Origin: an uncultured Clostridia bacterium | GTDB taxonomy: Bacteria > Bacillota > Clostridia > Christensenellales > UBA1242 | Length of the DNA stretch: 64,000 nucleotides | Assembly: GCA_947649575.1 (NCBI GenBank) | Contig: CANSRZ010000003.1 | Span: 35,996-99,995, forward strand | Direction of reading: 5' to 3' | Shown here: in pieces, positions 8,411-55,790 of the stretch | Layout of the letters: every line of letters begins with the position of its first letter | How positions within the stretch are numbered: the stretch's first letter is position 1 | Notes under the pieces: generated by a model | Told to the model about the DNA's origin: nothing | The model's database searches: none | Seen by the model: the letters and a program-made list of their open reading frames with translations, nothing else | Program-made: the position numbers and the translations under genes

Positions 8411-8602
8411 CGACTGTCAGCAATCTTAATTCAAATTTAAGTTTTATCCGTTCATAACAAGCCTCACGCTTGGCGACTGTCTGATAACTTAATTCAAATT
8501 TAAACTTTATCCGTTCATAACAAGCCTCACGCTTGGCGACTGTCTTAAAACTATACTCAAATGCAAACTTTATCCGTTCATTTCAAGCCTAACGCTTGGC
8601 GA
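8411..8602. repeat. Three tandem copies of a 63-bp unit in the convergent intergenic region (3' UTR of 7271..8395)
   Basis: Units start at 8411, 8474 and 8537 (CGACTGTC...). They share a conserved ~41-nt core, ACTTTATCCGTTCATAACAAGCCTCACGCTTGGCGACTGTC. A ~22-nt AT-rich part diverges most in copy 3. Confidence 0.9.
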
Positions 8603-11633: not shown

Positions 11634-12044
11634 TTATGTCAAAACATATCCGTGTTCCGCAAACCATTGAGGAGAAACACTATCTCCACAATCTGCCATC
11701 CAGAAGAGTGCTTTTTGCATAGGCAAATCATTGTTCATTCCATCAACTAATCCCCAATCAGCGAAATCGCCACTAGAATATGCTTTGTTCCCATTCATAA
11801 TGCTGTAACAACTTGAAATTGTTGAATTCTCGTTTGCAAATTTTGCTAATGCAACATTACTGTTAACAATCGCAGAACAGTTTGTCAATGTTACAGAACT
11901 GCTTGCACTTCCTGCCATCGCACCAGCTGAAGAAATATCACTGCCAGTGAATTTTATATATCCGTTCCCTGACAAATTGCTTAAAGTTGCTGAATTTGCA
12001 TTTCCTATAAACAAACCTGCTGCGTCTGAAGCCTTAATCAGCAA
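11634..12044 (-). pseudogene. Displaced 3' portion of the GLUG-repeat surface protein gene (frameshifted relative to 12038..14200)
   Basis: It would have to start at a TTG with no RBS. Its sequence (LIKASDAAGLFIGNANSATLSNLSGNGYIKF...LTNCSAIV...ISSCYSI) continues the repeat periodicity of the upstream ORF. See the finding at 12030..12050. Confidence 0.7.
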
Positions 12045-14200
12045 TTTGTGACAATGCTGTTGTTGATCTTAGGCTGATAACCATCTCCAGACAAACCGCC
12101 CGCCTTTGAACCCTTTATGTTAGAGTTAGAAACATGACAGTTTGACATTGTTCCCATCATATGAGCGGCTGCTATTCCGCCTGCACAACTACTACTTCCC
12201 GTTGCAGTGACATTGCCAATAAATACACATCCTGTTATGGTAACAGTACTACCTGAAGTTGTAAAAATTCCGCCTGCATATCCGCTTGCATGGGTATTCT
12301 CAAGAGTAACTTCACTTCTGCAATTGATAATATTCCCTGAATATTGTGCCAAACCAACAATTCCGCCTAAATATTGCTTGCTTGTTGTCATATATGAGTT
12401 CTTTACAATAACATTTTTTATTGTTGCATTACAGTTAAAGTCGTTTCCAACATAGCCAAACAGTCCTTGATAATCACCCTGTGAATCATCCAAGTTGATT
12501 CCACTAATAGAATAATTTCCGCCGTCATACTTGCCATTAAATGCTTGGTCAAAACCCTTGCCAATAGCAATCCATTTGTACTTACTTAAGTCAATGTCAC
12601 AGGCCTGCAAAATAAATTTATTTTCAAAATTATCCACGCCGTCATTAACAAGCTGAGCCAATCCCGCCAACTTCTCCGCCGAGTCAATTATATAAGGATT
12701 GCTTTCGCTATCCCCCACCCCCTCAACATGCCATGAAGTGTCAGTCAAAGCTATCCAATGAGTGGCTTTCCAAATAGCTTTTACAATTGACTCCTCTTCA
12801 CCGAATATAAAAGTATTTCCACTAATAGAACCATCACCTGTTACCTCCCAATAATCAAATATATGATATTGTTTTGTAGGAACTGAAAGTACTAATTCAG
12901 TTCCTTTCTTATCCAACACTTCTAACAAACCATCATAATCTCCACCGTTAACATCAATAGTCACTTTACTCAACGCTGCGTTATTATTTAAAAATATTGG
13001 ATACCCATTGTTTTGACTATTTATTATTGTCCAAACATTTTCAAAATCCCATTTATAAGTTTCATCTTTCACAGACCAGTTACTATCATCTAAATACCAA
13101 TTTTTATTTTTAGCATATTCAGTTGAATTTAAATCAACTATTTTTGTTCCAGAGGCAGACATATTACTATATGTAGGCTCCCCATGACCGCTGAATGAAG
13201 AGCATTCGCCTCCATAATAACAATTATTTGTATGAACATCAAGTTCATACTGAGTAATAGAATCTCCTCTAACGTATTTATATCCAATCAAACCACCTGA
13301 CTTACTACCTGAGCACTTACCAACATTAAAACAATTTGTTATAGTTGTGCCCCTAGCGTATCCGACAAGTCCGCCTGCATAATAACCTTGTATTGTCCCA
13401 GTATTATAACAATTACTTATTTTTATGTAATTCCCCGCACTATCCCCTGCTATGCCTCCAACATAGGCTGAAGATGCAGTAGCACTCACGTTTGCAGTAC
13501 TATAACAGTTTTTAATATTTACATATGAATCTACACGCCCCACAAGTCCGCCAACTCTATTACTTCCTTCAATAACAGAGTCAATTACACCCAAATTTTT
13601 TATCGTTATTTCAGTTTGATACGGATAACTCGGACCTCCACCTTTAACATAACTAAATAAACCTTTATAATCACCAGATTTTGTAAACACTCCTGATACT
13701 GTATGTCCATCACCATCATAATTCCCATGAAAATATCTGTAACTGCTACCAACTCCAATCGGTTGCCACCAATAATCTGAAACATCAATATCACAAGTTT
13801 GTCTAAAATAACATTTGGAATAGTAATAATATGATACAGTACCATACGCCCCATTAACTGTGTCATAACTCACTGTATTTTTATATATTGTATATGACAG
13901 CCCTGCTAATTCTTCCGCACTAGAGATTAAATAAGGTGAATCTTCAGAGCCACTACCTTCCCAGTCAAAATCAAGCGTTATGTTCCCACTGTCATGTGCT
14001 TCATTCCAATATTTATCATTTGTTGGCTCCGTTGCGCCTTGGGTTAACTGGCCTGGCTGGACAATTTGTGATTTAGATGAAAAATTGCCTAGGCCAAAAA
14101 CCAAGCCAAAGGTTAAAGCTAATACGCCAAGTGCTGATAAGCCGCCTGTTAGCCATGAAATCAATTTCTTTTTATTGATACCATTTCCAACCTTTATCAT
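12038..14200 (-). CDS. Large surface protein with GLUG-motif repeats and an InlB-B/Listeria-Bacteroides-type repeat, on an N-terminal signal anchor
   Basis: ATGGAGG RBS. N-terminal LISWLTGGLSALGVLALTFGLVFGL. Repeated GGLVG/GGIAG/GGLIG units are separated by N-C-(Y/F) turns. Two PYxIxSAEELAGL...CDIDxSxYxWxPIG modules are present. VTIDVNGGDYDG...FDYWEVTGDG is the InlB-B-type repeat. Confidence 0.8.
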   Translation of the reverse strand: MIKVGNGINKKKLISWLTGGLSALGVLALTFGLVFGLGNFSSKSQIVQPGQLTQGATEPTNDKYWNEAHDSGNITLDFDWEGSGSEDSPYLISSAEELAGLSYTIYKNTVSYDTVNGAYGTVSYYYYSKCYFRQTCDIDVSDYWWQPIGVGSSYRYFHGNYDGDGHTVSGVFTKSGDYKGLFSYVKGGGPSYPYQTEITIKNLGVIDSVIEGSNRVGGLVGRVDSYVNIKNCYSTANVSATASSAYVGGIAGDSAGNYIKISNCYNTGTIQGYYAGGLVGYARGTTITNCFNVGKCSGSKSGGLIGYKYVRGDSITQYELDVHTNNCYYGGECSSFSGHGEPTYSNMSASGTKIVDLNSTEYAKNKNWYLDDSNWSVKDETYKWDFENVWTIINSQNNGYPIFLNNNAALSKVTIDVNGGDYDGLLEVLDKKGTELVLSVPTKQYHIFDYWEVTGDGSISGNTFIFGEEESIVKAIWKATHWIALTDTSWHVEGVGDSESNPYIIDSAEKLAGLAQLVNDGVDNFENKFILQACDIDLSKYKWIAIGKGFDQAFNGKYDGGNYSISGINLDDSQGDYQGLFGYVGNDFNCNATIKNVIVKNSYMTTSKQYLGGIVGLAQYSGNIINCRSEVTLENTHASGYAGGIFTTSGSTVTITGCVFIGNVTATGSSSCAGGIAAAHMMGTMSNCHVSNSNIKGSKAGGLSGDGYQPKINNSIVTNC

Positions 14201-14320
14201 ATATAACCTCCATATTTATCATAAACCATTGTAACATTTTTATCAAAAATATCCAAATATTTCAGGCAGTTTTTGCGTAATATTACAATTTTTGAAAATA
14301 GATTTATAATTTTCAAAATC

Positions 14321-14348
14321 AGTATAGCAAATCCCCCCCCCGTGTCAA
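14321..14348 (-). promoter_or_regulatory. Sigma-A-type promoter with a G9 tract (C9 on the + strand) in its 16-nt spacer, upstream of the GLUG surface protein gene
   Basis: The reverse strand reads TTGACA(14348-14343)-CGGGGGGGGGATTTGC-TATACT(14326-14321). The tract spans 14333-14341. Confidence 0.6.
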
Positions 14349-14547
14349 CTAAATCTTAAACAAAGTTAAATTATTTTCAGTTGACACGGGAACAAAGCCA
14401 GACTTCGCGGGTCTTGTATATTTTTGACATGTGGGCAGTCAACTTTTTGTGAAAGAAAGTTCAAACTTTTTTTCGTTTCCACGGGAACTCGGCCTGACCT
14501 ACGAAGAAATAATGCATATTTTTATACAAAAATTAGTGTCAACGGCA

Positions 14548-15276
14548 CTAAACTTTCTTTTTTCTAAACAATCTGCTCATAAAATTTTCAATTTGGTCTT
14601 TGTATTTGATTGTTATTATAATCATAACAAGTGCCAGCAAGATTATTCCGCCCCACACAAATAAGCCCCAACCATTATAAGGAATAAGCTCGCCGCCACC
14701 TAAGTAAGCAGTTGTTATCACGCCGACTGGCCTTGTCAAAAACTGAGTTACTATAAAAAACAGCCAAGTCATGTCCGTCACGCCTGCCACAAGACATAAA
14801 ACATCATCTGGGAAAAATGGAAGAAGCATCATAATCACATAGCTATATTTGCCGTTGTCTAAAAATTTTATCCATTTGTTGCAACTCTCTTTTCCGACCA
14901 TAAAAACAACAAGTTTTTTCCCAAAAGTTTTGCCTAAATAAAACGCAAGTGCAGAGCCAAGCAATATTCCTGAAAGAGAAAGCAGCGACGCTTGAATTGG
15001 ACCATAAACAAGGCTGCCCGCAATCACAAGCACGCTTGCAGGGATTGGCAAAAAAGTCACTTGCAAAAATTGCAGTAACACAAAAATAGCTCTCCCATAA
15101 AAGCCCATGCTGAGAATAAGATTTTTCACTTTATCAACACTGTTAACCTTATCCCAAAGCCCAGTCCAAACAAGGAGTCCATAAACTCCGCCAAAGAACA
15201 ATGCTATTGCCAAGATTACAATAACAATATGCACAATCTTTTTACGCGTTGAAAACTCCTCTTTATTCTCATTCAT
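14548..15276 (-). CDS. TVP38/TMEM64 (DedA-related, SNARE-associated) family membrane protein
   Basis: FVLLQFLQVTFLPIPASVLVIAGSLVYGP...LGKTFGKKLV and FFPDDVLCLVAGVT are typical of the family. Length is 242 aa. Confidence 0.75.
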   Translation of the reverse strand: MNENKEEFSTRKKIVHIVIVILAIALFFGGVYGLLVWTGLWDKVNSVDKVKNLILSMGFYGRAIFVLLQFLQVTFLPIPASVLVIAGSLVYGPIQASLLSLSGILLGSALAFYLGKTFGKKLVVFMVGKESCNKWIKFLDNGKYSYVIMMLLPFFPDDVLCLVAGVTDMTWLFFIVTQFLTRPVGVITTAYLGGGELIPYNGWGLFVWGGIILLALVMIIITIKYKDQIENFMSRLFRKKKV

Positions 15277-18297: not shown

Positions 18298-20868
18298 ATG
18301 GCAAAAATAAATGTTGTGAAAGAAAAAAGCAAATTCACAGAATTGTTTATAAAAAAGAAAATTGTTGGGTTAAAGATAAATCAGACCCAAAAGTTTTCTA
18401 ATGTTAAAATAAAAAAACTGTTTGATATTGACGATTTCAAAATTTCTTTCAAGAAAAAACAAAAAGAGCCTGCTGAGCCTCCAAAGCCTGTCGTGCGATA
18501 TGAGGTTAATCATCAAACAGGGCTGACTGATGAGCAAATTCTTGAACGCAAAACTTCTGGACTTATAAACAACACAAAAATCAAAACTTCAAAATCTTAT
18601 GTTTCAATTTTTGTTAAAAACATATTCACCTTTTTCAATATGATTTGGCTTATAATCGCAGTTGCACTCTGCCTTGTGGGAGCAATCACTGACTTAATGT
18701 TCTTGGTAGTCGTTGTATCAAACACTGCAATTGCAATCATTCAAGAAATCAGAGCAAAAATAACAGTTGAAAAATTGTCGCTTCAAACTCTTCCTCACGT
18801 AAAGGTTATCAGAAATAGTCAAGAGGTTGACATAAATTCTGAAGAAATTGTGCTTGACGATATAATTCAACTTGGCAATGGCAATCAAATCCCTGCTGAC
18901 TGTATACTTGTTGACGGCAAGGTTGAGGTTAATGAAAGCCTTTTGACTGGCGAAAGTAATTCTATTGTAAAACGCAAAGGTGATATGCTTTTATCAGGCT
19001 CATACATCGTTTCAGGCTCTTGCCTTGCAAGAGTTGACAAGGTCGGCAAAGATAACTATATGTTTCAAGTGGCTGCCAAAGCAAGAGAATTTAAAGCACC
19101 TCAAAGCAACCTCTTTAAAGATATCAACCGCCTTATCAAATACATTGGCATTGCGCTTATCCCAATCGCAGGACTAACGTTCTATAAAGAATTCAACAAA
19201 CTTGGAATTGAAAAAATACAAGAAGTTGTTCAAAACACAAGTGGCTCACTTGTGGCAATGATTCCATCAGGCATGTTCCTTTTGATAACAATCTCGCTTG
19301 CAATAGGCGTTATCAAATTGGCTAGAAAAAAGACTCTTGTTCGCGATGTTTATTCAATAGAAATGCTGTCAAGAACAAATGTGCTTTGCCTTGACAAAAC
19401 TGGCACAATAACTGACGGCACAATGAATGTTGTAGAATTTAAAACTTTTACAAAACAAAGAAAAAGCACTGTTAAAAATACCCTTTCATCTATATTGTAC
19501 AATCAAAAATCTTCAAATGCAACTTCAAACGCTTTAATCAAAGAGTTCGGCATAGTTGATGGCATCGTAGCCAGAAACACAATCGAATTTTCATCTGAAA
19601 GAAAATATTCTGTCACTGAACTTGAAAAGAACAAGATATATTTCCTAGGTGCAACCTCATTTATCAGATGCAAACTGACTGCTGAACAAAAGTCGTTTAT
19701 TGATAACGCATCAAACAAAGGACTTCGCGTTATTGCTTTAACAGAACTTAACACGACTTTCAATGAAAATATAACCGGCGAGAACTCTTCTGTGCTTGCA
19801 CTTATCGCACTAGAAGAACATATCAGAAAAGATGCAATAGAAACAATAAATTGGTTTAAAGATAATGGCGTGCAGGTTAAAATTATATCTGGTGACGCAC
19901 CTGCAACAGTATCTAAAATTGCATCGCGCGTTGGCGTTGCCGATTGCGATAAATATGTATCTCTTGAAAATGTTAGTTTAAATGAAGTTGAGCAAATTGC
20001 TGATCAATTTACAGTTTTCGGACGTGTTACACCTGAACAAAAATATACAATTATCAAAGCATTGAAGAAAAAAGGAAATGTTGTTTCAATGACAGGCGAC
20101 GGCGTTAACGACAGTCTTGCTCTTAAAGAGGCTGACTGCTCTATTGCAATGGCTGACGGCAGTGAAGTTGCTAGAAATATTTCAAACATAGTTCTGCTAA
20201 ACTCAAACTTCTCTTCGCTTCCCGCAATTGTTAAAGAGGGCAGGCAAGTTGTCAACAATGTTCAAAACTCCTCTGCCCTTTATCTTATGAAAACATTCTT
20301 TGCAATCATTCTAAGTTTAACTACCCTTATCTTTGGTCTAAATTATCCGTTCATTCCTCGAATGATGTTCTTGCTTGAGTTCTTCATTATAGGAATTCCA
20401 TCATTCCTTATGACATTTGAGCCAAATACAAAACAAATTAAAGGCAACTTTATCCCGCAAGTTATGAAACGAGCCTTGCCAAGATCACTTTTGATGCTTG
20501 TAAGCATATTGATAATAGTATTCTTATCAGCAAAAGCTACAAGCCCATTTACGCCAGAAGAAGTCAGCACTTTATGCGTGCTTGTTCTGACTTATACAGG
20601 TCTCATAAATCTTATCACACTTTGCATTCCTTTTACAATCATAAGAGGCCTAGCAATTGGCATTTGCGCAGTCGGACTTGTCTTAACAAGTGTGATTATG
20701 CCAGAATTTTTCAATATGACAGCCTTTACAGCGCCTGTTATGATAACTTTCTCGGCTGTTATATTCGTGGCAATTGTGCTTTTGATTTTAATAAAATTTA
20801 ACAAGAATTTGATTAATAAAGTCAAACAAAGAATTATCAGATTGTTACAGAAATCTGACGAACAATAA
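18298..20868 (+). CDS. Cation-transporting P-type ATPase (P2/HAD-IC type) with a lysine-rich ~70-aa N-terminal extension
   Basis: Motifs CLDKTGTITDG, MTGDGVNDSLALKEADCSIAM, TGES and PAD, with about 10 TM segments. The ATG lies 7 nt after a TATACT -10 box, so the mRNA may be leaderless. Confidence 0.9.
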   Translation: MAKINVVKEKSKFTELFIKKKIVGLKINQTQKFSNVKIKKLFDIDDFKISFKKKQKEPAEPPKPVVRYEVNHQTGLTDEQILERKTSGLINNTKIKTSKSYVSIFVKNIFTFFNMIWLIIAVALCLVGAITDLMFLVVVVSNTAIAIIQEIRAKITVEKLSLQTLPHVKVIRNSQEVDINSEEIVLDDIIQLGNGNQIPADCILVDGKVEVNESLLTGESNSIVKRKGDMLLSGSYIVSGSCLARVDKVGKDNYMFQVAAKAREFKAPQSNLFKDINRLIKYIGIALIPIAGLTFYKEFNKLGIEKIQEVVQNTSGSLVAMIPSGMFLLITISLAIGVIKLARKKTLVRDVYSIEMLSRTNVLCLDKTGTITDGTMNVVEFKTFTKQRKSTVKNTLSSILYNQKSSNATSNALIKEFGIVDGIVARNTIEFSSERKYSVTELEKNKIYFLGATSFIRCKLTAEQKSFIDNASNKGLRVIALTELNTTFNENITGENSSVLALIALEEHIRKDAIETINWFKDNGVQVKIISGDAPATVSKIASRVGVADCDKYVSLENVSLNEVEQIADQFTVFGRVTPEQKYTIIKALKKKGNVVSMTGDGVNDSLALKEADCSIAMADGSEVARNISNIVLLNSNFSSLPAIVKEGRQVVNNVQNSSALYLMKTFFAIILSLTTLIFGLNYPFIPRMMFLLEFFIIGIPSFLMTFEPNTKQIKGNFIPQVMKRALPRSLLMLVSILIIVFLSAKATSPFTPEEVSTLCVLVLTYTGLINLITLCIPFTIIRGLAIGICAVGLVLTSVIMPEFFNMTAFTAPVMITFSAVIFVAIVLLILIKFNKNLINKVKQRIIRLLQKSDEQ

Positions 20869-30103: not shown

Positions 30104-31123
30104 TTAAACTTCTGGAGTGACTGAAGCAAATGTCACTGTTCCAGCAAAACCTTTCACTGTTTCTAAAGCAAATGGAGCAATTTCATCATAGCTTGTAAAG
30201 TTAACAAAATAAACTTTATCTTCATTTTCAAACACAAAGCAAACTGATGTTGATGCAAGTGTTTGAGCATCCTCTTCTTTCACTTCAAAATATACAAGGT
30301 TGCCATCTTCTTGAAGTTCTGGGCAATCAGCCTCTTCAAAAGTATCAACTAAGAAAGCATTGGCATAATCTTTTACAGTTGGCTCAGTAGAATCAACAAA
30401 TGTAAAGCTGTCTTTGTTTTTTGTAGAAACTGAGAAAGTGCTAAATTGATTTGTTGTAAGTTCAAAATAAGTTCCAGCAACTGTATCTTTTGAAGCATTA
30501 AATTCATTAGTCAATGAAATATTCAAGCCAAGGTCTGTCTCAAAGTCTTTTGCAGTCACAGCCTCTGGTTCAGTCATATTATACTTTGCTGATTTTGCAA
30601 ATTCTTCAAACTTGTTTTTGCATTTATTTGCATCTTCTCTAAAGCATGTGAAATCGACAGTGAAGAAAGCATCAGCACTTCTATAAATATAAGATTGTGT
30701 ATAGAATGCATCACCATCCAAAGAATAATTATATTCAAAATTTGCAAAGCCATTTTCTGCATCAACTTTTACAGAACTTGCTGTCACACCCAAAGGAATG
30801 CTATCCCTTGTATAAATAAGTGCTACAGCAAACTGTTTGCAAGACATTACATCAGGATTATAGCCAAGCTGTTTAACCTCTTCAAAAGTTTGTTTGCTTA
30901 ACATAAACAGCATTTCATCAGTTGCAGCTGCATATGTCCCCGCTTCAGTTGTAGACTCCACCTTAAACTCTTTAGTAAGCGTGATCGAAAGTCCTAAGCC
31001 TGTGTCAAACTCTTTAGGTTTCTTTTTTGCATTGTTTGCAAGATAAACACCCAAAAAGCCAAGCGCAAACACAAGAACACAAACAACTATATATATTATT
31101 TTCTTTGTTTTTGTCTTTTCCAT
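30104..31123 (-). CDS. Hypothetical signal-anchored exported protein with an internal two-fold domain duplication
   Basis: AAAGGAG RBS before MEKTKTKKIIYIVVCVLVFALGFLGVYL. The two halves start with TGLGLSITLTKEFKVESTTEAGTY and TDLGLNISLTNEFNASKDTVAGTY. Confidence 0.65.
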   Translation of the reverse strand: MEKTKTKKIIYIVVCVLVFALGFLGVYLANNAKKKPKEFDTGLGLSITLTKEFKVESTTEAGTYAAATDEMLFMLSKQTFEEVKQLGYNPDVMSCKQFAVALIYTRDSIPLGVTASSVKVDAENGFANFEYNYSLDGDAFYTQSYIYRSADAFFTVDFTCFREDANKCKNKFEEFAKSAKYNMTEPEAVTAKDFETDLGLNISLTNEFNASKDTVAGTYFELTTNQFSTFSVSTKNKDSFTFVDSTEPTVKDYANAFLVDTFEEADCPELQEDGNLVYFEVKEEDAQTLASTSVCFVFENEDKVYFVNFTSYDEIAPFALETVKGFAGTVTFASVTPEV

Positions 31124-31235
31124 AAAAACTCCTTTTTTCGATATTATTATAACCAAATTATAGTATGTTATGTCAAGCAAAATGACAAAAATTCGTAAAT
31201 TTTTATCAATTTCAACAAAAAAAGCCTTAATGTAA

Positions 31236-32207
31236 CTAAGGCTTTTTGATGTCTATTTCTTGATTATATAAAGTTATAACTTGAGTAGCAGACACATGAC
31301 TTTCAACTGTCACGCCAAAAGCAGGATTTGTCCCCACCAAGTTCCCCTCTGTTTGCATTTTAAAAATTTGAGCGTTATCTTTATAGATATAAAATGTATA
31401 AGTTGCATCAATTCCCCTAACATTAGCCATATCGCCAGTGCTTTCAAAAAAGTGGAGATATCTGTCTGTCCAAACAGCAGTGTTAATAACCTTTGCATTT
31501 ATGATATAATACTCTTTTCCATTTTGATCAATTTGCGTAAGCGTTGTGGCATTAAAATATTGAGTAGAAAAATCTATTAGTGGTCTTTCGGCAACAAGAA
31601 AAGCTTGCGCATCAATAAATTCAGGTTCTGTAAATTCAGTCTTCATAGCCGAAGAGAAATCATAATTAAAATCTGGCGTTTGATAACGAGTATAAGAATT
31701 GCCCTCTTTATAATAGCCTCTTATATAGTTTGAAGCCTGATCGCTCATTGGCCCCTCAGCTTTGAATTTAAAAATTTCATAAGCTTTATCCTTGCATTTA
31801 TCAGCCGTTCCACTAACATATTGCTTAACTGTTATTTTTGAGCCAAGAACAATTGCATCATTTGTTAAAACAGCGGAATAATTTGACTTATATCCCTCTC
31901 CGTCATACAGTTTGTCAAACGCATAATTCAATAATTTGATTGGATATTTATAACTTGGCACATTTGGATCAAACTCTTCGTCAGGCAAAGCAGGCTCTTC
32001 ATCGGGCTGACTTGGATTGCTAGGAACTGTTGGCTGTGATGTATTATTTTGATCGCCTGTATTTCCTCCACTTCCAGAATTGCCAACGTCAGGCACAACA
32101 ACCTCAGGAGTAACAGCAATCACATAAGTGCTTATGCCAAAAGCACCTATGACAAGCACAAGCAAAACCGAAAATATAATGTTGTAAACATTCTTTTTAA
32201 ATTTCAT
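31236..32207 (-). CDS. Paralog C of a tandem triplet of signal-anchored exported proteins (unknown family)
   Basis: MKFKKNVYNIIFSVLLVLVIGAFGISTYVIAVTP anchor, a Pro/Ser/Asn-rich linker, and a conserved body shared with 32246..33232 and 33244..34224. Confidence 0.7.
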   Translation of the reverse strand: MKFKKNVYNIIFSVLLVLVIGAFGISTYVIAVTPEVVVPDVGNSGSGGNTGDQNNTSQPTVPSNPSQPDEEPALPDEEFDPNVPSYKYPIKLLNYAFDKLYDGEGYKSNYSAVLTNDAIVLGSKITVKQYVSGTADKCKDKAYEIFKFKAEGPMSDQASNYIRGYYKEGNSYTRYQTPDFNYDFSSAMKTEFTEPEFIDAQAFLVAERPLIDFSTQYFNATTLTQIDQNGKEYYIINAKVINTAVWTDRYLHFFESTGDMANVRGIDATYTFYIYKDNAQIFKMQTEGNLVGTNPAFGVTVESHVSATQVITLYNQEIDIKKP

Positions 32208-32245
32208 TTATACCCTTTAATATATTCGCAAACTATGCCCAAAAA

Positions 32246-33232
32246 TTACTCTTCCTTTTTATCTAAGGGATTTGTCACCTCAATTTTTTGATTGTATGCA
32301 GTTACAGTTTCATTAACGGCAACACGGCAAACAAGATCAATGCCTGTGCCAGGGTTAACCCCTACGATATTGCCATCAATTTGAATTTTAAAAATCTGTG
32401 CATTGTTTTTATAAATATGGAAAGTATAACTTGCATTTTCTACTCTAACTTGTTTTAAAGCACCAGTACTTTCAAAAAACCTCATAAACTCGGCAGGCCA
32501 AGAGTCTTTATCAATGCCTGTTGCAGTAAGAACATAATACTCAACGCCGTTTTTATCAACTTGAGTGACTATTGAAGTGTTAAATTTTTCTTTAGTAAAG
32601 TCAAGAATTGGCTTATCAACCAATGCAAAGCCAAATCTTGCATTATAAGATTCTCTTGTATATTCTGTATTCCCATAAGCAGATGCATCAAACACATTGT
32701 TAGGAGTTTGCATATGATACAATTTATCGCCGTCAATGTAAAGTTTTCTTAAATAATTGGCAGCACCATTGCTTGCAGGACCTGTTGCACTATAAACAAA
32801 ATCTTCATATGCCTTATCCCCGCTTTGCTCAACATAGCCGTCAATAGTTTGTTTGATTGTTATGGCTGAGCCAAGAAGCATTGCGTCAATGTCCATTTTT
32901 ACTGAATAGTTTGCACGATAGCCGTCACTGCTGAACATTTTGTCTAACGCATAATTAAGCACTTTAAGAGGATATCTATGACTTGGAACATTTGGATCAA
33001 AGTCCAAGTCAGGATTGTTTGGATTGTCAGGATTGATATCTCCTGGATTTTGCGGATAAGACGGATCGTTATCACCTGGGTTGTTTGGGTTGTTATCTTC
33101 AGAATCTCCCGCGTCAGGAGAAACAATGGTTGGAGCAGTTGCAATAACATATGTACTCAAGCCAAAAGCGCCTATGACAAACATAAGCATAATTATGAAT
33201 ATAACATTGTAAATTTTCTTTTTAAAAACCAT
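32246..33232 (-). CDS. Paralog B of the tandem triplet of signal-anchored exported proteins
   Basis: MVFKKKIYNVIFIIMLMFVIGAFGLSTYVIATAP anchor and an Asn/Pro/Asp-rich linker. Shared motifs: FDPNVP..RYPLKVLNYALDKMF and YTFHIYKNNAQIFKIQIDGNIVGVNP. Confidence 0.7.
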   Translation of the reverse strand: MVFKKKIYNVIFIIMLMFVIGAFGLSTYVIATAPTIVSPDAGDSEDNNPNNPGDNDPSYPQNPGDINPDNPNNPDLDFDPNVPSHRYPLKVLNYALDKMFSSDGYRANYSVKMDIDAMLLGSAITIKQTIDGYVEQSGDKAYEDFVYSATGPASNGAANYLRKLYIDGDKLYHMQTPNNVFDASAYGNTEYTRESYNARFGFALVDKPILDFTKEKFNTSIVTQVDKNGVEYYVLTATGIDKDSWPAEFMRFFESTGALKQVRVENASYTFHIYKNNAQIFKIQIDGNIVGVNPGTGIDLVCRVAVNETVTAYNQKIEVTNPLDKKEE

Positions 33233-33243
33233 ATGTAACCCTA

Positions 33244-34224
33244 TTATTCCTCTCCAGCAAGAGGGCTTTCAATTTCTATTTTTTGATTGTATGCAGTTAC
33301 AACTTCATTTGCTGACACTTTGCATTCAACATCAATCCCTGTTGCGGGATTAACTCCTGTAACGTTTCCGTCAATCAAGACTTTAAAAATTTGAGCGGTA
33401 TTTTTATAAATATAAAATGTATAACTTGCATTTTTGATTTTAACATTCTTTATTGCGTTTGTACTTTCAAAGAATCTCATAAATCTTTCTGGGAAAGAAG
33501 AGGCATCAATTCCTGTTGTTGTGATGATATAAAATTCAGCACCTTTTTTATCTTTTTGAAGCACAAGTGACGCCGAAAACTTATCCGTTGTGAAATCCAA
33601 ACAAGGTCTTTCAGCCAATGAGAAGCCAAAACGATCATAATATTGGTCTTTTGTATATTCAGTCAAATAGAACTCAGATTCATCATAACTATGTTTTGGA
33701 GTTTTTAAGCGATACGCTTTATCATCTTCCATATAAAGTTTTCTTATATAATTTGCAGCATAAGTTCCCAAAGTTCCAGTGCCCTCAAACCTCAAATATT
33801 CCACGCTCTTATTGCCACTCGCTTGAACATAGCCATTGATTTTCTGATTGATTTTCACATTAGAGCCTACAACACTAGCCTTAACATCAAGATTAACGCC
33901 ACATGTTGCATGGAAGCCCGCACTATTAAACATTTTATCAAGCGCATAGTTAACAATTTTCAATGGATATTTAAAATTTGGAACGTTAGGATCAAAATAT
34001 TCTTCTGGAGCAACTGGCTCACTTGGAATTTCAGGACCTTGCGGAAGTGACGGATTATTGACATCAGGATTGTCAGGATTGTTATCATCAGGATTTTCTG
34101 CATCAGGAATAACAACAGCAGGTGCTGTTGCGATTACATATGTGCTTATGCTACAAGCGCCAATCACAAAGATTAGCAAAATAGCAAATATAACATTGTA
34201 TGCCTTTTTCTTAAATTTCATCAA
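33244..34224 (-). CDS. Paralog A of the tandem triplet of signal-anchored exported proteins
   Basis: MMKFKKKAYNVIFAILLIFVIGACSISTYVIATAP anchor. Shared motifs: FDPNVPNFKYPLKIVNYALDKMF and YTFYIYKNTAQIFKVLIDGNVTGVNP. Confidence 0.7.
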   Translation of the reverse strand: MMKFKKKAYNVIFAILLIFVIGACSISTYVIATAPAVVIPDAENPDDNNPDNPDVNNPSLPQGPEIPSEPVAPEEYFDPNVPNFKYPLKIVNYALDKMFNSAGFHATCGVNLDVKASVVGSNVKINQKINGYVQASGNKSVEYLRFEGTGTLGTYAANYIRKLYMEDDKAYRLKTPKHSYDESEFYLTEYTKDQYYDRFGFSLAERPCLDFTTDKFSASLVLQKDKKGAEFYIITTTGIDASSFPERFMRFFESTNAIKNVKIKNASYTFYIYKNTAQIFKVLIDGNVTGVNPATGIDVECKVSANEVVTAYNQKIEIESPLAGEE

Positions 34225-49390: not shown

Positions 49391-49486
49391 AAATCCACCT
49401 CATATATAGAGTTTACTTTTTTTTCAAAAAAAAAGCAAATGTTTAACAATTGTTTTTTAAGGAATAATCATAAAAGGAGGCAAAAT

Positions 49487-53211: not shown

Positions 53212-53553
53212 TTACGCTTGCTGACCGAAAACAGCATAACACATAATGTCGTTGACAGATTGATTGATAAGTGAATACACCAAAATTTTGCCGTCCCTAC
53301 GATAACTTACAATCCCTTGGTCTTTCAAAAGTTTAAGCTGATGCGAAATAGTCGTTTGATTGATTCCTAAAAGATTAGATAAATCACTAACACATAAACT
53401 TGAAATAGCAAGACAAGACAAAATCTTAATTCTTGTGTTATCTGCAAAATTCTGAAAATAACATGCCAATTTTTCTACTTGATTTTCTTCTGGCAAACTG
53501 CAAATAATATCATGCTTGTTTCGCTCAGATAATAATAAATATTTACTTTGCAT
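53212..53553 (-). CDS. ArsR/SmtB-family metalloregulator-type transcriptional repressor
   Basis: AAAGGAG RBS before MQSKYLL. HTH region FADNTRIKILSCLAISSLCVSDLSNLLGINQTTISHQLKLLKDQGIVSYRRDGKILVYSL. Confidence 0.85.
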   Translation of the reverse strand: MQSKYLLLSERNKHDIICSLPEENQVEKLACYFQNFADNTRIKILSCLAISSLCVSDLSNLLGINQTTISHQLKLLKDQGIVSYRRDGKILVYSLINQSVNDIMCYAVFGQQA

Positions 53554-53709
53554 AAAAATCTCCTTTAACACTTTTTTTGATTAATTCATACAAATATATA
53601 TGACTAATACCATTGTGCCAGAAAAAAGAAAAAATTCCAAAGAGAAAATTTTATAATTTTACATAATTTTGTTTTATTAAATATTTTTTTGTTGAAAGGA
53701 GAAATAATT

Positions 53710-53907: not shown

Positions 53908-53979
53908 GCGTAAATTTTTAGCGCTTTTTTGAGTAAATATAAAAAATTTTTAATTTTTTGAAAAATTTTGAAAAATCAT

Positions 53980-54007
53980 TTGACAAATCCCCCCCCCGCA
54001 ATATAAT
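53980..54007 (+). promoter_or_regulatory. Sigma-A-type promoter with a C9 tract in its 16-nt spacer, driving the first pilin-like paralog
   Basis: TTGACA(53980-85)-AATCCCCCCCCCGCAA-TATAAT(54002-07), with the tract at 53989-53997. The AAAGGAG RBS and ATG 54038 follow 30 nt later. Confidence 0.7.
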
Positions 54008-54037
54008 AGGCTATATTCTAAAACAAAGGAGAAAAAT

Positions 54038-54421
54038 ATGGGGATTTTTTCAAGATTATTGGACACGACAACAAATACAGCAAACACAGCCACCACTGGC
54101 TGGGCAGGCGCTTTTAGTGATGCTAATATTACTGAAAAATTTGGAGCAGAATATGTTAGCAAACTTTCTTGGATTGCAAAAGTATTTGGCCCAATCAGTA
54201 TCGTGATGTACATATTAATGGGGCTTGTTGGTGCTGCTGGTGCGGTTTATGCAATCTATCTTGGCGTTATGCTTGCCAAAGCTGAGGATACATCAAAACG
54301 CGATGAAGCAAGAAAACACTTGATCACTGTTCTTATCGCTGTTGCTTGTACTGTTGTTCTTGTTTTGTTCTTTAATTTATTGTTACCTGAAATAGTTGTT
54401 AAACTAATCTCAGTAAAATAG
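54038..54421 (+). CDS. Pilin-like small two-TM membrane protein, paralog 1
   Basis: Variable N-terminus, then the core FGPISIVMYILMGLVGAAGAVYAIYLGVMLAKAEDTSKRDEARKHLITVLIAVACTVVLVLFFNLLLPEIV. The TM-charged loop-TM hairpin resembles VirB2/TrbC-type proteins. Confidence 0.8.
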   Translation: MGIFSRLLDTTTNTANTATTGWAGAFSDANITEKFGAEYVSKLSWIAKVFGPISIVMYILMGLVGAAGAVYAIYLGVMLAKAEDTSKRDEARKHLITVLIAVACTVVLVLFFNLLLPEIVVKLISVK

Positions 54422-54594
54422 CAAATAAAAAACTTAATATGTTGAACAAAATCGAGATAAAATATTTTTGAAAAAATATTTAAAAAAATATGTCGATTTT
54501 GTTTGACATTTTTTTTTATTTAGTTTATTATTCTTTTGTAACTTATAAATATTTTTGCTTAAATTGAACAATAATAAATGGAGGTATAAAATTT

Positions 54595-54981
54595 ATGAAC
54601 GCATTTTTATCAAAATTATTAGGCTGGACTGGTGTCTTCCCACCAACAGGGAGTGATAATATCGCTGATGCCAGCAAATATAAATATGCATGGGTTGGCG
54701 ATGTTTTCGGACCAATCAGTATTGTAATGTACATTCTTATGGGTTTGGTTGGTGCAGCAGGTGCGGTTTACGCAATTTATCTTGGCATTATGCTTGCTAA
54801 GGCTGAAGACCAATCTAAACGTGAAGAAGCTAGAAAACACTTAATCACTGTTCTTATCGCCGTTGCATGTACTGTTGTTCTTGTATTATTCTTCAATGAA
54901 TTATTGCCATTAATTGTAGAAGCACTTATTGGTACACCAGAGGGCATACTTCCTGGCTTAAAACCAAAACCTTGGAATTAA
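54595..54981 (+). CDS. Pilin-like small two-TM membrane protein, paralog 2
   Basis: GGAGG RBS. Own promoter: TTGACA(54503-08), a 17-nt spacer beginning with T9, then TATTAT. Same core with different N- and C-termini. Confidence 0.8.
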   Translation: MNAFLSKLLGWTGVFPPTGSDNIADASKYKYAWVGDVFGPISIVMYILMGLVGAAGAVYAIYLGIMLAKAEDQSKREEARKHLITVLIAVACTVVLVLFFNELLPLIVEALIGTPEGILPGLKPKPWN

Positions 54982-54999
54982 TTATAGGAGGAAAAAATT

Positions 55000-55383
55000 A
55001 TGCAAATTACAAATTTATTAAGAACTTGGGCGAGTTTGTTTGAAGGTTCAACAGACTTTGGCTGGATGGCAGACGTATTTGAGCCAATCAGTATTGTAAT
55101 GTATATCCTTATGGGTTTGGTTGGTGCTGCTGGTGCGGTTTATGCAATCTATCTTGGCGTTATGCTTGCCAAAGCTGAAGACCAATCTAAACGTGAAGAA
55201 GCAAGAAAGCACTTAATCACCGTTCTTATCGCTGTTGCTGTTACCGTTGTTCTTGTTTTGTTCTTCAACTTGCTTATGCCAGAAATCGTATATGCTTTGG
55301 TTGGTAAAGATGTTGACCACCCTACAGATACAACTCAAAACGCTGGACAAATTATTCAAGCAGTAAAAGCATTCCTTCATTAA
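55000..55383 (+). CDS. Pilin-like small two-TM membrane protein, paralog 3
   Basis: AGGAGG RBS 18 nt after the paralog 2 stop, so probably co-transcribed. Same core with unique termini. A terminator follows. Confidence 0.8.
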   Translation: MQITNLLRTWASLFEGSTDFGWMADVFEPISIVMYILMGLVGAAGAVYAIYLGVMLAKAEDQSKREEARKHLITVLIAVAVTVVLVLFFNLLMPEIVYALVGKDVDHPTDTTQNAGQIIQAVKAFLH

Positions 55384-55388
55384 AAATT

Positions 55389-55416
55389 AAAAGTCATCAA
55401 TTGATGACTTTTTTTA
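55389..55416 (+). terminator. Intrinsic terminator after paralog 3
   Basis: AAGTCATCAA-TTGATGACTT followed by T5. Confidence 0.8.
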
Positions 55417-55481
55417 TTTTATATTGCAATTTATTTGAAAAAAATATTTTTTTGTGGTATATTAATTATAAGGAGTTTGAT

Positions 55482-55790
55482 ATGTTATCACTTTTATTGA
55501 AATCATATAAATTTTTAGGTAATTACGCTTGGCTGAATGAAGTTTACACTGTTTTGCCACCTATTCTTTATGCAATCCTCGGTTGCGTTGGCGGAGCTGG
55601 CACTGTTTATGCAATTATACTTGGAGTTAATCTCGCCAAGGCAGACAGCGACGATACTAGAAAAAACGCTGCCAATCGTTTGAAAAATACAATTATCGGT
55701 GTCGCAATTTTGCTTGTTCTTGTGCTTGTAATCAACCTCTTGTTGCCAATGGCACTTGCAGCATTCTTGCCAGTTGAAGTTATAAAGTAA
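55482..55790 (+). CDS. Pilin-like small two-TM membrane protein, paralog 4 (divergent, 102 aa)
   Basis: AGGAG RBS before MLSLLLKSYKF. Core ILGCVGGAGTVYAIILGVNLAKADSDDTRKNAANRLKNTIIGVAILLVLVLVINLLLP. Own TTGAAA...TGgTATATT promoter. Confidence 0.75.
   Translation: MLSLLLKSYKFLGNYAWLNEVYTVLPPILYAILGCVGGAGTVYAIILGVNLAKADSDDTRKNAANRLKNTIIGVAILLVLVLVINLLLPMALAAFLPVEVIK

Follow-up and report, generated by a model that had tools for sequence, protein, structure and literature searches.

A G9 tract in the promoter spacer of a GLUG surface-protein gene as a probable contingency element in an uncultured gut Firmicute

A run of nine G's lies in the spacer of a promoter that precedes a gene for a GLUG-motif surface protein in an uncultured, spore-forming gut Firmicute. 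We conclude that this element, at 14309-14348 on the minus strand of the window (the whole 64-kb stretch of DNA that was analysed, with a GC content of 35%), is probably a spacer-tract contingency promoter for the surface protein. It is read in this way because its architecture matches that of the porA promoter type. Judging from the sequences compared below, the class of -35/Gn/-10 promoters to which it belongs is one of length-polymorphic, porA-like spacer-tract promoters.

The promoter lies in the intergenic stretch upstream of a 720-aa ORF (12038-14200, minus strand). The earlier note had described it on the reverse strand as TTGACA (14348-14343), a 16-nt spacer and TATACT (14326-14321), and this description was confirmed. 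The spacer reads C-G9-ATTTGC (14342-14327), its G9 (C9 on the plus strand) occupying 14333-14341, a length within the range of slippage-prone mononucleotide G/C runs (about 7 or more). The -10 box is of the extended type, TG-C-TATACT (14321-14329), with TG at 14329-14328. In a consensus scan, the promoter matched 11 of 12 positions in addition to the TGn extension and ranked first among the promoter-like sites found between 13900 and 14900, which numbered 9 as compared with 2.8 ± 1.5 in shuffled sequences. It was called by consensus match alone, and its start site is putative. Comparison with L009, a Logan contig from another sample, delimited a 40-nt core promoter module, TTGACACG9ATTTGCTATACTGATTTTGAAAAT (14309-14348, minus strand), which runs from the -35 hexamer to about +5. 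We also considered the possibility that the region encodes a known cis-regulatory RNA or small RNA, but rejected it because no Rfam covariance model matched within 14200-14550; across the whole window, Rfam matches were limited to one L10 leader and two tRNAs.

The protein encoded downstream carries an N-terminal membrane anchor and matches the Pfam Glug family (E 1.4e-13). The window derives from the chromosome of a spore-forming Firmicute and carries GerA/B/C, FtsH, LeuRS, CysRS, RecD2, Mfd and Pth. The nearest genomes, found through the adjacent VTT/DedA protein, were four MAGs of uncultured gut Eubacteriales, Clostridia and Firmicutes (61-77% identity), in which no GLUG gene followed the DedA gene and no G/C run of at least 7 was present in 64 kb. 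Exact-protein look-ups returned no record of the GLUG protein or of its closest paralogues, P0002 and P0003, and the sole contig found with the DedA gene stops inside the loop of an inverted repeat described below, short of the tract. In the source MAG, the paralogues P0003, P0002, P0009 and P0018 lie on contigs of 176,877 and 154,929 nt. Elsewhere in the window, we observed an intergenic tandem repeat (8411-8602; 3.0 copies of 63 nt, 87% identity) and four consecutive minus-strand ORFs of 323-358 aa (30104-34224), possibly another paralogous family. None of the four matched Pfam, nor did the two that were checked match NCBIfam.

Long G/C runs are rare in this DNA. Two runs of at least 6 G's or C's occur in the window, at 14333-14341 and 53989-53997. 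Markov-1 simulations predicted 0.015 runs of at least 9 per window and none of 200 simulations contained two, indicating that the pair is not expected by chance. The second run also sits in the -35/-10 spacer of a surface-gene promoter, that of a pilin-like array. This sister promoter, TTGACA-AAT-C9-GCAA-TATAAT (53980-54007, plus strand; C9 at 53989-53997), matches the consensus at 12 of 12 positions and has the same 16-nt spacing, from TTGACA at 53980 to TATAAT ending at 54007. The 'pilins' of the array are VirB2-like small membrane proteins. Among them, the product of 55401-55790 alone scored above the curated cut-off of PF18895 (T4SS_pilin), and against NCBIfam NF045849 (Mbov_0395 family; cut-off 40) pilin1 reached 41.0 bits and the product of 55401-55790 reached 39.6 bits, just below the cut-off. 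An ArsR/HTH_5-family regulator gene (53212-53571, minus strand) is divergent from the array and would be a candidate for its conventional regulator.

The two tracts of the window share a plus-strand 15-mer, CAAATCCCCCCCCCG (CAAATC9G), at 14328-14342 and 53984-53998, and stand in opposite orientations relative to transcription, with G's in the sense strand at the GLUG promoter and C's at the pilin promoter; in both respects our analysis agreed with what had been noticed before. That the tract can stand in both orientations is consistent with a mechanism based on spacing alone. The six bases that flank the tract are identical in the two promoters, for which we estimated a chance probability of about 4e-4 from base frequencies, and the 15-mer overlaps the -35 hexamer in one promoter and the TGn element in the other. 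The idea that CAAAT-C9-G is a motif of the family was rejected, since the 15-mer is absent from two other contigs with tract promoters, L004 and L019, and from the 35-copy gut family presented below.

The tract of the sister promoter varies in length in nature. In seven assemblies it was C9 in the window, L002, L003, L010, L017 and L018, and C7 in L016, in which the spacer is thereby shortened to 14 nt; this was the sole indel in about 195 aligned nucleotides. A second pilin-like gene of the array has its own promoter, TTGACA-T9-ATTTAGTT-TATTAT (54503-54531, plus strand), with T9 at 54509-54517, directly after TTGACA. This T9, one of just two A/T runs of at least 9 in the window (the other being A9 at 49426-49434), had the same length in six assemblies, including L016, where the C tract is C7. 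An invariant T9 beside a varying C tract is what would be expected if G/C runs are the more mutable ones. Tract lengths were read from consensus assemblies throughout, several of the comparison contigs having a coverage of just 2-3x.

The GLUG promoter proved to be no isolated case either. Its 40-nt core (14348-14309) is identical at 40 of 40 positions to nucleotides 1-40 of L009, where it precedes another GLUG paralogue, P0013, which is close to P0018 and shares about 31% protein identity with the GLUG protein of the window. The two sequences diverge immediately past the core. Such perfect preservation in front of such diverged genes implies either constraint or gene conversion. The tract is G9 in both copies of the module that were found (window and L009; n = 2), and no match was obtained in a first metagenome scan, in which the 40-nt module was searched exactly except for a tract of variable length.

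Tract promoters of similar design but with other tract lengths were found in L019, a contig from a related organism (37% GC) that encodes the GLUG homologue P0014 and has three G tracts in 21 kb. One of these forms part of TTGACAC-G12-TATGT-TATACT, upstream of a 173-aa ORF, and another belongs to TTGACT-G7-N10-TAAAAT (17-nt spacer, TGn), upstream of P0014 itself. Besides these promoters, L019 contains a coding G12 (18841-18852) that encodes GGGG within a 272-aa ORF, and a coding G7 in L024 (4478-4484) cuts a surface-protein paralogue to 349 aa, as compared with 509-624 aa in its orthologues. These coding tracts suggest that translational phase variation may exist beside promoter tracts. Four JGI contigs (L038, L041, L065 and L069; 34-39% GC) carry an identical TTGACAC-G7-CTATATTTGC-TATACT promoter with an 18-nt spacer, all with G7 and with ATTTGC-TATACT as in the window, upstream of a 57-aa acidic ORF.

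A broader metagenome scan with the pattern TTGACAC-G(7 or more)-N3-13-TATACT yielded 59 matches, 35 of which form one family in human-gut contigs of about 30% GC. As TTGACAC and TATACT were fixed in the pattern, the likeness of this family to the window in these two elements is by construction; the polymorphism of its tract is not. The family has the layout ...ATAGAA...AAAAATTAAC-TTGACAC-Gn-TTGTTA-TATACT-TTCTATAGAA...ATG, with tract lengths (n = 35) of G9 in 23 copies, G10 in seven, G8 in four and G11 in one. Loci with the same flanks vary across samples, one group comprising five copies of G10, two of G9 and one of G11, and G8, G9 and G10 are all present in contigs at 28-31x coverage. Up to three loci occur per contig, and each promoter precedes a paralogous, signal-anchored protein of 350-715 aa; these proteins had no match in Pfam or NCBIfam. 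In 225 kb of such contigs, all G/C runs of at least 7 but one were in the module, the exception being a coding G7 by which a paralogue is truncated. The loci lie among housekeeping genes (Lon, EF-P, PBP2, RodA), and the named relatives of the lineage's EF-P are labelled 'Mollicutes bacterium' or 'Bacilli bacterium'. The lineage is abundant, its EF-P cluster comprising 194 sequences. A search of phage sequences in IMG/VR gave no match for either of the two promoter patterns.

The recurrence of the length nine raised the question of whether the tract is a fixed element, held at nine by selection as a structural or protein-recognition part of the spacer (for instance a rigid poly(dG).poly(dC) segment or the site of a regulator), with slippage having no regulatory role here. 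The tract is indeed nine bases long in the two promoters of the window and in L002, L003, L004, L009, L010, L017 and L018, L016 with its C7 being the exception; nine is also the mode of the gut family (23/35) and is kept in spacers of 16, 16 and 18 nt, and the entire spacer, beyond the hexamers, is the same in the window and L009. Yet a fixed element is hard to reconcile with C7 in L016, with G7 and G12 in L019 and with G8-G11 at orthologous loci, including those in high-coverage contigs, and with the occurrence of the tract in both orientations. A mode of nine is moreover typical of known hypermutable poly-G loci, such as those of the Campylobacter phasome. We therefore regard the fixed nine-base element as the main rival of the contingency reading, but one that is weakened by the occurrence of lengths 7, 8, 10, 11 and 12 in homologous settings and that is rather unlikely to be correct.

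If the GLUG promoter is a spacer-tract contingency promoter, it would operate as follows. Its core is, as judged by consensus match, that of a strong promoter of the housekeeping-sigma type (sigma-A/sigma-70), with the spacing between -35 and -10 set by G9. The run would lengthen or shorten by one base through slipped-strand mispairing as the DNA is replicated, and the resulting spacers of 15, 16 or 17 nt for G8, G9 or G10 would shift promoter strength. The outcome would be a heritable and reversible cell-to-cell variation in the transcription of the surface protein, which is by definition a contingency locus. The module is one copy of a design reused before other surface genes of the lineage, namely the GLUG paralogues and the pilin-like array, and at least one further lineage of uncultured gut Firmicutes has the design as well. 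A graded output (high, medium, low) would be likelier than a strict on/off switch, in view of the TGn extension at the -10 box and of a promoter without a tract about 90 nt downstream. The earlier note had already proposed that the tract might modulate rather than fully switch expression, and the extended -10 argues for such modulation. Against the contingency reading, G9 gives a spacer of 16 nt rather than the optimal 17, which would correspond to G10, and output could be almost independent of spacer length owing to the extended -10 and the proximal promoter.

The existence of a promoter candidate nearer to the gene had been pointed out before, as TTGATA-17-TATGAT at 14256-14228. Such a candidate is indeed present, but these coordinates merged two overlapping ones: the consensus scan separated TGGATA-16-TACAAT with a TGn element (14255-14228) from TTGATA-17-TATGAT (14246-14218), both on the minus strand and without a tract. 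L009 also has a proximal promoter candidate (TTGACT-17-TACAAT). A feature that had previously been missed is that the reading frame of the GLUG gene is interrupted. The gene is frameshifted at about 12040, and an out-of-frame continuation of 136 aa (11634-12044, minus strand) corresponds to the C-terminal part that is conserved in full-length homologues (P0002, P0003 and P0018), with about 100 residues matched. The junction, ACAAATTGCTGATTAAGG, is not a repeat, and the frameshift reflects either a true pseudogene or an assembly error. The switch may thus control a crippled gene in this genome.

The upstream side of the promoter contains degenerate relatives of promoters. Diverged copies of CACGGGAAC had been reported at 14384 and 14479; the copies are real, but they are part of a larger, diverged tandem duplication of roughly 95 nt, in which 14368-14403 is 72% identical to 14463-14498 and 14344-14377 is 71% identical to 14438-14471. 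Two units can be delimited on the minus strand within 14350-14547 (14443-14350 and 14547-14444), each with GTTGAC at its start, a decayed promoter-like TTGACT/TTGACA...TATACA/TATGCA arrangement and GTTCCCGTG (minus strand, at 14393 and 14488). The hairpin at 14533-14551, which is the terminator of the upstream VTT/DedA gene, overlaps with the distal unit. A description of the region as three tandem promoter units was rejected, since the two upstream units align with each other and the live promoter shares just GTTGAC with them.

This arrangement invites the view that the distal promoter is itself a relic, a decaying copy in a duplicated leader, and that the proximal promoter drives what remains of a pseudogenised GLUG gene. 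The two degenerate units directly upstream, the proximal promoter candidates and the frameshift are all compatible with it. The live copy, however, matches the consensus at 11 of 12 positions and has TGn, whereas the upstream units, with TATACA and TATGCA, lack the final T; furthermore, the distal promoter is 100% identical to its copy in L009. We consider it quite improbable that the tract promoter is such a relic.

Another possibility was that the promoter is governed by the inverted repeat that overlaps its -35 hexamer. The perfect 12-nt inverted repeat claimed at this place, CCCGTGTCAACT (14339-14350) and AGTTGACACGGG (14379-14390) with 28 nt between them, was verified, and it extends to arms of 15 nt (14339-14353 and 14376-14390) at 93% complementarity. 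Its downstream arm is made up of AG and the -35 hexamer, followed by C and by the tract's first three G's. Folded as single-stranded DNA, the repeat gave -14.2 and -14.7 kcal/mol (z = -7.1 and -6.1 relative to shuffles), and the repeat is the sole 12-nt inverted repeat of the window that is no A-run/T-run terminator. As an intrinsic terminator, the hairpin at 14339-14390 was rejected because no U-run stands next to it; the sequence after it is G9ATTTGC on the minus and AACAAAGCC on the plus strand, and the terminators reported around the locus by a dedicated scan were those at 14533-14551 and 14106-14087, with no others. The inverted repeat is not a general feature of tract promoters, as none is present at the pilin promoter (fold z = +0.8).

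The inverted repeat might nevertheless be the real control element, as the site of a dimeric repressor or activator or as a cruciform, with the tract being incidental. It is locally improbable by chance, forms a stable predicted hairpin (z of about -6 to -7) and covers the -35 hexamer with the first three G's, and L004 also has TTGACA and TGTCAA facing each other around its G9. On the other hand, the repeat is missing not only from the pilin promoter but also from the L019 promoters, another repeat (ATAGAA...TTCTAT) flanks the promoters of the gut family, no gene for a cognate regulator lies next to the locus and an operator would be compatible with the tract mechanism. We consider it unlikely that the inverted repeat is the control element to the exclusion of the tract; it may be a locus-specific operator. 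An inverton was rejected, since the arms are 22-28 nt apart, the -10 box is not enclosed, one orientation was seen and no recombinase domain was found among the ORFs scanned.

The last alternative was that promoters or cassettes are exchanged by crossover at the tract and its flanks or at the inverted repeat, the 15-mer marking the core site. An observation that would agree with this came from L004 (ERZ28572879), nucleotides 1-653 of which were aligned with 53945-54580 of the window. The pilin1 cassette is 100% identical, from AAAACAAAGGAG to GCTTAAATT, and stands behind a different promoter, TTGACA-TTTGCATA-G9-C-TATAAT (18-nt spacer), and before a different 3' flank. This arrangement is either a second copy or a strain-specific exchange of promoter or cassette; a simple inversion of the window's pilin promoter was rejected, as no reverse-complement match was apparent by inspection. 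Chimeric pilins in other assemblies, P0227 and P0122, would also agree with a crossover. In these proteins the N-terminal part of pilin1 is fused to the C-terminal part of pilin3, or vice versa, with the junction within the hydrophobic middle part that the pilins share (window array 54038-55383); they reflect either recombination between paralogues of the array or chimeras of short-read assembly. Finally, short-read contigs often stop at tract promoters or within a few dozen bases of them (at the end of L001 and at the starts of L009, L010 and L018), as would also be expected of a multi-copy repeat at which assembly graphs break. Repeats in short-read assemblies do, however, produce both contig breaks and chimeras. 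No recombinase was found among the window ORFs scanned (all listed ORFs of at least 230 aa and some smaller ones), the distance of 22-28 nt between the arms leaves too little room for an invertible segment, the two copies of the 15-mer lie in direct orientation, separated by 39.6 kb with essential genes between them, and the 15-mer is missing from other tract promoters. A role as a recombination site thus appears very improbable.

Going beyond the locus itself, we propose as a tentative idea, more doubtful than the contingency reading, that the 40-bp core '-35, C, Gn, N6, TATACT' is a portable phase-variable cassette. It would have been copied by gene conversion or recombination before unrelated surface genes (the GLUG paralogues and self-recombining pilin cassettes) and would be shared by at least two uncultured gut Firmicutes lineages, one a Clostridia-like spore former and the other Bacilli/'Mollicutes'-like, with the inverted repeat providing an additional, tract-independent control or an exchange site. 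If this were true, these commensals would possess a Neisseria/Campylobacter-style phasome that inverton-centred gut surveys have missed.

Taken together, the data point to spacer-tract promoters that are reused across surface-protein families of uncultured gut Firmicutes and whose lengths vary across human samples. If this is confirmed, a simple signature, in which a G/C run of at least 7 lies within a few bases downstream of TTGACA and precedes a -10 box, could be used to find variable surface antigens or phage receptors in metagenomes. It would also reveal a source of strain-level heterogeneity that consensus MAGs hide, and would call for caution, as the tracts would break assemblies and gene calls.

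The closest known system is porA of Neisseria meningitidis, in which a poly-G run lies between -35 and -10 and slippage leads to graded expression in the order 11G > 10G > 9G (PMC3639595, PMC7371114). More generally, simple sequence repeats in promoters produce low, intermediate or high states (PMC7371114). As in porA, and also in opc and fetA with poly-C, a G/C homopolymer of 9-11 nt makes up most of the -35/-10 spacer of a surface-protein gene. Unlike porA, a single-copy gene of a Gram-negative pathogen, the GLUG promoter belongs to an uncultured spore-forming gut Firmicute, and its core is reused before paralogues; further differences are the TGn element at its -10 box, the second promoter, which has no tract, and the inverted repeat that covers the -35 hexamer, and its effect on expression is a predicted one. 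The vlp genes of Mycoplasma hyorhinis form a surface-gene family with conserved promoters, the spacers of which contain a hypermutable homopolymer, and they switch independently. They resemble the present case as a surface-protein family of the Firmicutes/Mollicutes branch with a homopolymer in the promoter spacer, but differ in that their tract is a poly-A of about 17-20 nt, that they encode lipoproteins and that their switching was shown experimentally, the tracts of the present study being G/C runs of 7-12.

Campylobacter jejuni has a low-GC genome whose long G/C runs almost all serve as functional contingency tracts linked to surface structures (PMC8437040). The DNA studied here is similar in its low GC content, in having its long G/C runs nearly all in putative contingency tracts and in a modal length of about 9. 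The Campylobacter tracts, however, are mostly in reading frames, whereas those of the window and the gut family sit for the most part in promoter spacers, coding tracts being found occasionally (L019 and L024). The intergenic homopolymeric tract between Spy1336 and R28-Spy1337 of Streptococcus pyogenes is polymorphic in natural populations (PMC7098570), but it is a poly-T between divergent genes and not a reused -35/-10 spacer module. Invertons, the invertible promoters by which gut bacteria and C. difficile phase-vary surface genes, have been reviewed (PMC11868660). They resemble the GLUG locus, if it is phase-variable as proposed, in acting on surface genes of gut commensals, and also in having inverted repeats near a promoter. 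They depend, however, on a recombinase and on repeats that lie on both sides of the entire promoter, at a distance of a hundred bases or more, in contrast with the GLUG locus, where the arms are 22-28 nt apart, the promoter is not enclosed and the ORFs scanned included no recombinase.

For gut commensals, most of what is known about phase variation concerns such invertible promoters, and tract-based switching has been described mainly in pathogens (Neisseria, Haemophilus, Campylobacter and mycoplasmas). In the literature searched, no paper connected tract promoters with GLUG proteins or with gut Clostridia. The mechanism itself is well established, and no new one is revealed; what is new, as far as this literature shows, are the host organisms, uncultured gut Firmicutes, and the reused 40-nt module, which had not been described. 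The GLUG promoter is thus probably, as read from its sequence, a mutational dimmer switch of an ordinary kind that occurs here in an unusual bacterial group.
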